Assembly: GCF_016026235.1 (NCBI RefSeq)
Contig: NZ_CP065613.1
DNA length: 64,000 nucleotides
DNA from: Escherichia coli
Lineage (GTDB): Bacteria; Pseudomonadota; Gammaproteobacteria; Enterobacterales; Enterobacteriaceae
Reading direction: 5' to 3' (one strand)
Below the pieces are notes generated by a model. It searched no databases. It was not told where the DNA came from and saw only the letters and a program-made list of their open reading frames with translations. Made by a program: the position numbers and the translations under genes. Positions 32,302 through 33,452 of this stretch are shown here, piece by piece (within the stretch, counting starts at the first letter, position 1; every line of letters begins with the position of its first letter).

Positions 32302-33174
32302 ATGGATGCACCGAGTACCACACCGCATGATGCAGTGTTTAAACAATTTTTAATGCACGCGGAGACGGCTCGCGACTTTCTGGAGATACATTTGCCAGTG
32401 GAATTACGAGAACTTTGTGACCTCAACACGCTTCATTTAGAGTCGGGGAGTTTCATTGAAGAGAGCCTGAAAGGACACAGCACGGACGTGCTCTATTCCG
32501 TGCAAATGCAGGGCAATCCCGGTTATCTGCATGTTGTGATTGAACACCAAAGCAAGCCGGATAAGAAAATGGCCTTTCGCATGATGCGTTATTCTATTGC
32601 TGCCATGCACCGGCATCTGGAGGCGGATCACGATAAGCTGCCGCTGGTGGTGCCGATACTGTTTTATCAGGGCGAGACCACACCTTATCCGCTCTCAATG
32701 TGCTGGTTTGATATGTTTTACTCGCCGGAGCTGGCGCGACGCGTCTATAACAGTCCTTTTCCGCTGGTGGATATCACTATCACACCGGATGACGAAATCA
32801 TGCAGCACCGGCGGATTGCGATTCTCGAACTACTGCAAAAGCATATTCGCCAGCGCGACTTAATGTTATTGCTGGAGCAACTGGTCACGCTGATTGACGA
32901 AGGGTACACTAGCGGAAGTCAGTTAGTTGCCATGCAAAACTATATGCTGCAACGCGGTCATACTGAACAAGCGGATTTGTTTTATGGTGTGCTGAGAGAC
33001 AGGGAAACGGGAGGGGAGTCTATGATGACGCTGGCGCAGTGGTTTGAAGAGAGGGGAAGACAGGAGGAAAGGCAAGAATTCGTCCTGCGTCTTCTGAATA
33101 AAGGAATGTCTCGGGAAGACGTTGCAGAGATGGCAAATTTACCCCTTGCCGAGATTGATAAGCTGATTAACTAA
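32302..33174 (+). CDS. rpnC: Recombination-promoting nuclease RpnC/YadD (PD-(D/E)XK nuclease N-domain + DUF4351-like C-terminal domain)
   Basis: 290-aa ORF MDAPSTTPHDAVFKQFL...; Rpn/transposase_31 family; C-terminus ...TLAQWFEERG...GMSREDVAEMANLPLAEIDKLIN. Confidence 0.85.
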   Translation: MDAPSTTPHDAVFKQFLMHAETARDFLEIHLPVELRELCDLNTLHLESGSFIEESLKGHSTDVLYSVQMQGNPGYLHVVIEHQSKPDKKMAFRMMRYSIAAMHRHLEADHDKLPLVVPILFYQGETTPYPLSMCWFDMFYSPELARRVYNSPFPLVDITITPDDEIMQHRRIAILELLQKHIRQRDLMLLLEQLVTLIDEGYTSGSQLVAMQNYMLQRGHTEQADLFYGVLRDRETGGESMMTLAQWFEERGRQEERQEFVLRLLNKGMSREDVAEMANLPLAEIDKLIN

Positions 33175-33242
33175 GTTGTCTGCATCATCAGTTATAGCCA
33201 GATAATTGTTATTGTTAACTGACCAGATAATTAAGGGAACCT

Positions 33243-33452
33243 ATGGAAATAAAGACACGGAGAGAAACCAGGCAGACGTTGGCGCAGTGGTTTGAAGAGA
33301 AGGGATTTCAGAAGGGATATCAAGAGGAACTCCAGAAGGTAAGACAGGAATTCGCCCAGCGTTTTCTAAGTAAAGGGATGTCTCGGGAAGACGTTGCAGA
33401 GGTGACAACTTTACCTCTTACAGAGATTGATAAGCTAATTAACTCTAACTAA
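33243..33452 (+). CDS. Free-standing small ORF (69 aa) homologous to the C-terminal domain of RpnC (RpnS-like)
   Basis: MEIKTRRETRQTLAQWFEEKG...GMSREDVAEVTTLPLTEIDKLINSN aligns with the last ~48 aa of the upstream rpnC product; AGGGA 6 nt upstream of ATG. Confidence 0.55.
   Translation: MEIKTRRETRQTLAQWFEEKGFQKGYQEELQKVRQEFAQRFLSKGMSREDVAEVTTLPLTEIDKLINSN

Follow-up and report, generated by a model that had tools for sequence, protein, structure and literature searches.

The segment of Escherichia coli DNA studied here lies in a 64,000-nucleotide stretch (the window) in which the nuclease gene rpnC is followed by rpnCSs, a separate small open reading frame (ORF) that carries a diverged second copy of the region encoding the RpnC C-terminal domain. 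The explanation of rpnCSs that we favour overall, with a probability of roughly 0.7, is that it is a stand-alone gene that originated by duplication, is co-transcribed with rpnC, and encodes a protein that dimerises in the manner of RpnS antitoxins but with a specificity other than that of the resident RpnC. In the Rpn proteins, a phage defence of the toxin-antitoxin type that was recognised only recently, the antitoxin is produced from within the toxin gene, and toxin and antitoxin therefore co-evolve by necessity. An antitoxin domain that exists as a separate copy escapes this co-evolution and provides a place to ask how repeat-number specificity is set; it also bears on why rpn repeats change so fast.

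The region corresponds to yadE-panD-rpnC-panC-panB of E. coli (Table 1), and positions 32900-33560 are 100% identical to E. coli AR_0085, where the identical nuclease gene is named 'recombination-promoting nuclease RpnC' by PGAP. RpnC matched the profiles Transposase_31 (Pfam PF04754, E=2.2e-87) and TIGR01784 (E=6.6e-80). The internal ORF at its 3' end probably corresponds to the intragenic antitoxin gene rpnCS of Zhong et al.; the sequence surrounding its start is identical to that of K-12, in which RpnCS has been seen by ribosome profiling and SPA tagging (PMC10400941). The two-unit repeat tract of rpnC is the shortest allele among the strains seen, the segment from WFEE to GMSREDV (the repeat tract plus a constant 9-residue flank) ranging from 17 to 57 residues in other strains. 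rpnCSs begins 68 nucleotides 3' of the rpnC stop codon on the same strand, its Shine-Dalgarno sequence, TAAGG (33232-33236), being located 6 nucleotides upstream of the ATG and its four-residue repeats beginning at residue 20. Overlapping minus-strand ORFs (e.g. 33241-33408) were rejected as genes; they mirror the repeat and are without support.

Table 1. Features of the rpnC-rpnCSs locus, in positions of the window
Feature	Position	Strand	Remarks
panD	31648-32028	minus	
rpnC (yadD)	32302-33174	plus	290 aa; PD-(D/E)XK recombination-promoting nuclease, long toxic form RpnCL
rpnCS, internal ORF (predicted)	33022-33174	plus	50 aa, MMTLAQWFEE...; Shine-Dalgarno GGGAGGGGAG at 33009-33018
Repeat copy 1 (rpnC 3' end)	33027-33172	plus	local alignment
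rpnC four-amino-acid repeat tract	33052-33075	plus	two units only, RGRQ EERQ
Inter-copy spacer	33175-33242	plus	contains the TAAGG Shine-Dalgarno
rpnCSs	33243-33452	plus	stand-alone 69-aa RpnS-type ORF, ATG start, MEIKTRRETRQTLAQWFEE...KLINSN
Repeat copy 2 (within rpnCSs)	33275-33444	plus	local alignment
rpnCSs four-amino-acid repeat tract	33300-33347	plus	four units, KGFQ KGYQ EELQ KVRQ
G+C-rich hairpin, panC terminator	33513-33543	minus	sole terminator-like site between rpnC and panC
panC	33548-34399	minus	

An earlier note on this DNA had read the small ORF as an RpnS-like, diverged tandem copy of the RpnC C-terminal domain that is missing from K-12, and this core reading is upheld. The 69-aa frame is present in the ORF list with a Shine-Dalgarno sequence of its own, and the three shared blocks quoted in the note were all found in both copies. 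The homology to the end of rpnC that it had claimed for both DNA and protein is borne out at each level. Local alignment, which refined the rough positions given for the repeat units to 33027-33172 and 33275-33444, yielded a score of 167, whereas 200 shuffles averaged 19.2 (sd 2.3) and reached at most 28, and BLASTP matched RpnC residues 235-290 to rpnCSs residues 4-67 with 40 identities in 64 positions (E=1e-21). Aligned with MAFFT, the copies showed 84% mean column identity and differed by a 24-nucleotide indel in the repeat tract and a 6-nucleotide indel ahead of the stop codon. Weaker similarity extends about 25 nucleotides further upstream, where RDRET in rpnC corresponds to TRRET in rpnCSs. 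The rpnCSs protein also matched the C-terminal positions 213-273 of TIGR01784 (E=2.8e-8). Its probable membership of the C-terminal domain family is based on this homology to RpnC, not on fold.

A gene of this kind has already been described. Zhong et al. (2023, PNAS 120:e2307382120; PMC10400941) reported that each E. coli rpn gene encodes a toxic full-length nuclease, RpnL, together with a C-terminal antitoxin, RpnS, that is made from an internal start, and they described rpnCSs, which appears there as a diagram only. RpnCSs groups with RpnCS in their work, indicating an origin from rpnC, and its loss by deletion or fusion is also covered. Both options offered by the earlier note, a separate RpnS and a product of recombination, thus have a counterpart in that text, as a separately encoded RpnS and as loss or fusion. 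The published rpnCSs and the window ORF agree in locus (rpnC-panC), orientation, homology to RpnCS, possession of four-residue repeats and presence in some E. coli but not in K-12, with no essential difference between them, and the two are almost certainly the same gene. As a feature, rpnCSs is already known and is no discovery. A literature search found no later work on rpnCSs and no papers citing its protein accessions. The sole point that goes beyond the literature is a mismatch in repeat length between RpnCSs and the resident RpnC, which is absent from the accessible portion of PMC10400941.

In K-12, rpnC encodes 300 aa and panC follows after 73 nucleotides with no second copy, versus a gap of 373 nucleotides in the window, where the locus is 270 nucleotides longer than that of K-12 over the compared stretch. 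The shorter K-12 yadD-panC spacer that the earlier note had assumed is therefore real. Its suggestion of a strain-specific insertion of about 300 bp is correct in that the segment is missing from K-12, but the inter-copy spacer (taken here as 33175-33275) was found in 1555 of 5426 complete E. coli genomes (29%) at a threshold of at least 90% identity (at least 95% in all but 2 genomes), once per chromosome and never on plasmids, and K-12-type alleles look like secondary fusions, as discussed below. Nor is the ORF an orphan, since its parent rpnC adjoins it. Both copies are found, for example, in B2 strains such as EC958 and clone D i14 and in IAI39 and O145. Approximately 3000 genomes, about 55% of E. 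coli, have the K-12-type single-copy junction, and the remaining genomes have other single-copy forms, e.g. O157:H7 and strain 5132. A scan of one genome per species detected the locus only in Escherichia. E. marmotae also has two-copy loci, as does the divergent 'E. coli' SCPM-O-B-8794 lineage; in the latter the two copies are nearly identical, being one four-residue repeat apart, and the spacer is 25 nucleotides shorter. In E. albertii, E. whittamii and strain E69 there is a single copy; it ends in KLIN and a stop codon, beyond which lies the sequence found 3' of copy 2 in E. coli.

Sequence comparison shows that rpnCSs originated when part of rpnC, with some downstream sequence, was duplicated in tandem, a segment of about 250-270 bp in all. 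The duplicated unit extends approximately from the RDRET codons of rpnC to 35 nucleotides beyond its stop codon, and the initial 30 or so nucleotides of the inter-copy spacer are similar to the sequence 3' of copy 2. The event took the last 50 or so codons of rpnC together with about 35 nucleotides of downstream sequence. In copy 2 the original internal start of rpnCS (GGGAGGGGAG-N4-ATGATG) was lost, and a new ATG with its own Shine-Dalgarno sequence, 11 codons upstream (MEIKTRRETRQ), opens the 69-aa frame. This ATG and the preceding TAAGGGAACCT are kept in E. coli, E. marmotae and SCPM-O-B-8794 despite differences elsewhere in the spacer, and the start region TAAGGGAACCTATG is likewise kept in E. 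marmotae and SCPM-O-B-8794. The spacer also contains a direct repeat with a 25-nucleotide period, CCAGATAATT, at 33198-33207 and 33223-33232.

A partial duplication could also have left a functionless fragment that is now decaying, as older automatic annotation implies. rpnCSs has been annotated as a hypothetical protein, a transposase or a pseudogene fragment 'missing N-terminus', and the older PGAP flag 'incomplete; missing N-terminus' is found in five genomes (AR_0085, O145 RM12367, IAI39, SSGNw1 and O139). Consistent with decay, the original internal rpnCS start has been lost and most E. coli genomes are without rpnCSs, the K-12-type junction accounting for some 3000 of them. However, the frame was intact in all 16 loci retrieved by DNA similarity, a set without bias towards intact ORFs, in which every length (65-77 aa) preserved the frame and the first 19 residues were invariant save for one R-to-W change. 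The ORF, ATG and Shine-Dalgarno sequence were intact in every two-copy locus examined, and the start signals have been retained in three Escherichia lineages despite the differences in their spacers. Between species, dN/dS for 42 non-repeat codons of rpnCSs was about 0.15-0.46, similar to that of the RpnC C-terminal domain (0.05-0.43), with lower values for the nuclease domain (0.02-0.09). With 11-18 substitutions behind them, and with gene conversion from rpnC as a possible cause of lowered estimates, the rpnCSs values point towards a constrained protein without proving it. The current PGAP name, 'RpnC/YadD family protein', also speaks against a decaying fragment. We regard decay as very improbable, and rpnCSs should be annotated as an RpnC/YadD family small protein rather than as a pseudogene fragment.

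Database homologs of rpnCSs are 57-86 aa long, most of the variation lying in the four-residue units of the tract. Because alleles differ by such units, and because a period-12 repeat was detected at 33298-33322 (TRF), rpnCSs has its own hypervariable repeat tract.

A consensus scan of the spacer revealed no terminator-like or promoter-like site between rpnC and rpnCSs. Two GATAAT hexamers in the spacer were considered as promoter elements and rejected, as their -35 partners are poor and the scan returned no sigma-70-like site. Rfam gave no match on either strand of 32000-33800. With no terminator between the two genes, co-transcription of rpnCSs with rpnC/rpnCS is the simplest expectation. 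An internal promoter within rpn genes has been reported, and rpnCSs is most likely transcribed from it and from the rpnC promoter, with translation from its own ribosome-binding site. That rpnCSs is translated seems to us a likely conclusion, given its conserved frame and start.

Whether the product acts on the resident toxin can be approached through the repeat tracts. Adding a single KGIE repeat to RpnCS abolishes its ability to counteract RpnCLS, and the converse mismatch has the same effect (PMC10400941, Fig. 4D). This matching rule was assayed only for the addition of one repeat in the K-12 RpnC background; a commentary generalises it, stating that a repeat mismatch prevents complex formation (PMC10400984). 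In the window, RpnC has two units and RpnCSs four. Across 52 two-copy loci, which represent 30 distinct combinations, the WFEE-GMSREDV segment was never of equal length in RpnC and RpnCSs, the difference ranging from -16 to +32 residues. A single rpnCSs allele co-occurs with rpnC linkers of 37, 41, 45, 53 and 57 residues. The set includes 36 loci found via intact protein sequences, and so is unbiased for pairing while biased towards intact ORFs. A test for avoidance of equal lengths was not significant, random pairing being expected to produce 0.87 matches with P(0)=0.37. The complete lack of length matches thus shows that the two tracts are not coupled, rather than that equal lengths are avoided. 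Taken together with the published matching rule, the failure of tract lengths ever to match makes neutralisation of the resident RpnC by RpnCSs doubtful. Should the rule apply in general, RpnCSs is an improbable antitoxin for the resident toxin, and the never-matched lengths at 52 loci open the way to a direct experiment on the purpose of stand-alone copies.

It could be, however, that RpnCSs is a redundant second antitoxin, cognate to the resident RpnCL and silencing it despite the tract difference, which would provide extra dosage from a separately regulated start. The gene is located directly 3' of the toxin gene with no terminator between them, RpnCSs and RpnCS are 63% identical, and the ORF is conserved and constrained; in addition, antitoxin activity is established for RpnS proteins, and expression for the analogous RpnESs (PMC10400941). 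Set against this, the RpnCSs tract is two units longer than that of the resident RpnC, a difference of 2-32 residues is seen in all 30 combinations, and a mismatch of one repeat abolished inhibition in the published assay (PMC10400941). Moreover, the rpnC tract varies freely while the rpnCSs allele remains fixed, the opposite of the co-variation expected of a cognate pair. On balance this redundant role seems unlikely, and for RpnCSs to neutralise the resident RpnCL at all would be somewhat surprising.

Another alternative is that copy 2 is mainly a recombination cassette, a stored C-terminal module that is swapped onto rpnC and changes its specificity helix or tail, its translation being incidental. 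Mosaic alleles exist. In EC958, copy 2 is mosaic, with a copy-1-type 3' half and tail. K-12-type rpnC combines a copy-1-type body with a copy-2-type two-codon tail and copy-2 downstream sequence, and the single-copy alleles of MOD1-EC7003 and E1V33 show the same combination of body, tail and downstream sequence. The two-codon tail extension is missing from E. albertii, E. whittamii and E69. Because of this copy-2-type tail and downstream sequence, K-12-type alleles are most parsimoniously viewed as secondary fusions that deleted one repeat period, consistent with PMC10400941, in which fusions are mentioned. The near identity of the two SCPM-O-B-8794 copies can also be counted in favour of a cassette. 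Against it, silent cassettes normally have no start, yet rpnCSs has gained a conserved ATG and Shine-Dalgarno sequence, and its dN/dS is below 1. The observed fusions delete the cassette instead of exchanging it, and among the single-copy alleles examined there was no full-length rpnC with the KGFQ/KGYK-type repeat body of rpnCSs. Pervasive gene conversion was considered and rejected: copies from the same genome showed no excess similarity (11.9 versus 11.5 differences in 90 nucleotides, P=0.93). The copies are not generally homogenised within genomes, and exchange between them is therefore only occasional. A role chiefly as a cassette appears distinctly unlikely, although copy 2 probably serves as a recombination partner as well and would have re-tailed rpnC in some lineages.

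Returning to the stand-alone gene with a specificity of its own, our best estimate from the sequence data is that rpnCSs encodes a translated, RpnS-type dimerising domain with a specificity unlike that of the resident RpnCS. From its homology to RpnAS and RpnCS, we expect a small helical domain resembling a helix-turn-helix (HTH), the long first helix of which, bearing the four-residue repeats, would bring about dimerisation with another C-terminal domain of the RpnC type. Dimerisation via this domain is how RpnS antitoxins block RpnL nucleases; by analogy, the odds that RpnCSs is itself a protein-protein inhibitor of the RpnS type appear about even. The population data make it improbable that RpnCSs pairs with the resident RpnCL in the way that RpnCS does, and its partner is more likely to be a different RpnC variant. 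A tentative proposal is that RpnCSs has no functional link to the adjacent toxin and either neutralises non-self RpnC variants brought in by recombination or acts as a donor that re-tails rpnC, although in this specific form the proposal is more likely wrong than right. Uncoupling would imply a role in cross-immunity or anti-addiction, or as a tail donor of the sort seen in the K-12-type fused allele. This proposal lies beyond what the published work addresses in its accessible portion.

Orphan C-terminal modules of cdiA/rhs usually have no translation start and are paired with their own immunity gene. Together with silent pilS cassettes, they resemble rpnCSs in being diverged copies of the variable 3' end of a polymorphic gene, located just 3' of it, with a shared block of homology and occasional recombination. 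Unlike both, rpnCSs has its own conserved start, with ATG and Shine-Dalgarno sequence present in three Escherichia lineages, and is itself an antitoxin-like domain. The RpnS proteins encoded within rpn genes (RpnAS, RpnBS, RpnCS and RpnP2S; structure 7TH0) have the same type of domain, helical and HTH-like with a repeat-bearing long first helix, a fold that rpnCSs would share. Intragenic RpnS shares codons with RpnL, however, so that its repeat number co-varies with that of the toxin, whereas rpnCSs is separate and its tract drifts independently; rpnCSs also has the 11-residue N-terminal extension in place of the MM start. A similar arrangement is seen in rpnE-ypaA (rpnESs) of K-12, also a separate second copy of the RpnS domain directly 3' of its parent rpn gene, the product of which was detected by means of an SPA tag (PMC10400941). 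It is found at another locus and had an independent origin, RpnESs grouping with RpnES and RpnCSs with RpnCS (PMC10400941). In RpnSs proteins the hypervariable four-residue repeats begin 8-20 residues after the initiating Met, and this holds for rpnCSs.

A Pfam-A scan of rpnCSs gave no match at E<=0.001; RpnC itself matched DUF4351 (PF14261) at an i-E of only 0.04, and close rpnCSs homologs have precomputed matches to PF27070 (HTH_Rpn_C) that are marked weak. A PADLOC match to the C-terminus of RmrA (E=5e-4) was set aside as weak and probably due to generic HTH similarity. A PDB sequence search recovered no Rpn structure, 7TH0 included, the best match being 8vd6, a designed HTH-like 'CAP repeat' protein. 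The AF2 model of rpnCSs was of moderate confidence (pLDDT 70.5), with helices at residues 4-19, 25-43, 48-55 and 59-67. Foldseek comparison of this model with the PDB gave no match at E<=0.001, and RpnAS (7TH0), a dimer of three-helix bundles, was outside the top 50. With only non-significant HTH-type matches and 7TH0 not recovered, fold was dropped as evidence for rpnCSs. The top Foldseek matches, none of them significant, were HTH domains of resolvases, DeoR, Fis and TrpR, and their HTH character agrees with an HHpred remark in PMC10400941.

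The repeat tract of rpnC in the window contains only two four-residue units, in a protein of 290 aa that is the shortest allele seen; elsewhere, rpnC encodes up to 330 aa. A single allele of rpnCSs, the stand-alone second copy of the RpnC C-terminal domain, co-occurs with rpnC of 310, 314, 318, 326 and 330 aa, and the rpnC tract is therefore much faster-changing than the rpnCSs tract. The spacer between the two copies carries a direct repeat with a 25-nucleotide period (CCAGATAATT...CCAGATAATT), each copy of which includes a GATAAT hexamer. At the locus from the SCPM-O-B-8794 lineage (L018) this repeat is present once only (CCGGATAATT), so the spacer is 43 nucleotides there versus 68. 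PADLOC revealed a weak match (E = 5e-4) between residues 21-67 of the rpnCSs protein and the C-terminus of RmrA (profile positions 290-336 of 357), which probably reflects generic HTH similarity.

Coordinates of features in the window and at the rpnC-panC loci compared with it
Feature	Sequence	Position
rpnC repeat tract	window	33052-33075
Spacer direct repeat	window	33198-33232
ORF matching RmrA	window	33243-33449
rpnC stop codon	L003, E. coli MRSN346647, NZ_CP018206.1	~1605 (window ~33006)
IS3-family insertion	L048, GCA_014143775.1	279-1433
rpnC-panC gap	L062, E. coli O157:H7 17B6-2	1000-1297
Foreign DNA	L065, E. coli TB4328, NZ_AP038823.1	from ~1800

In L003, an AGG GAA to AGG TAA change directly 5' of the internal ribosome-binding site for RpnCS cuts the nuclease domain short at residue 234, and PGAP labels the gene 'internal stop'. 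Despite this stop, the frames of both rpnCS, the internal-start ORF, and rpnCSs are unbroken.

An IS3-family insertion sequence (HTH_Tnp_1/rve) separates rpnC from rpnCSs in L048 and L049, and supplants the initial residues of the small ORF (MEIQGASLQTLAQWFEE...). With L065, the 3' end of a K-12-type (single-copy) rpnC is fused to foreign DNA bearing the type III effector gene nleA, which alters the rpnC tail to ...KVITLLKDDKII* and pushes panC away; foreign DNA may integrate at the 3' end of rpnC or at the terminator of panC. In L062, where rpnC is also single-copy, a gap of ~300 nucleotides separates it from panC, and additional sequence with CCCCAGTCACTTA, presumably resembling an ERIC/IRU repeat, was found beyond the terminator hairpin. 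A 4.3-kb MAG contig labelled 'uncultured Oscillospiraceae' (L017, CALXDF010000219.1) contains an E. coli rpnC-rpnCSs-panC locus of the type found in the two-copy strain EC958, almost certainly through binning contamination.
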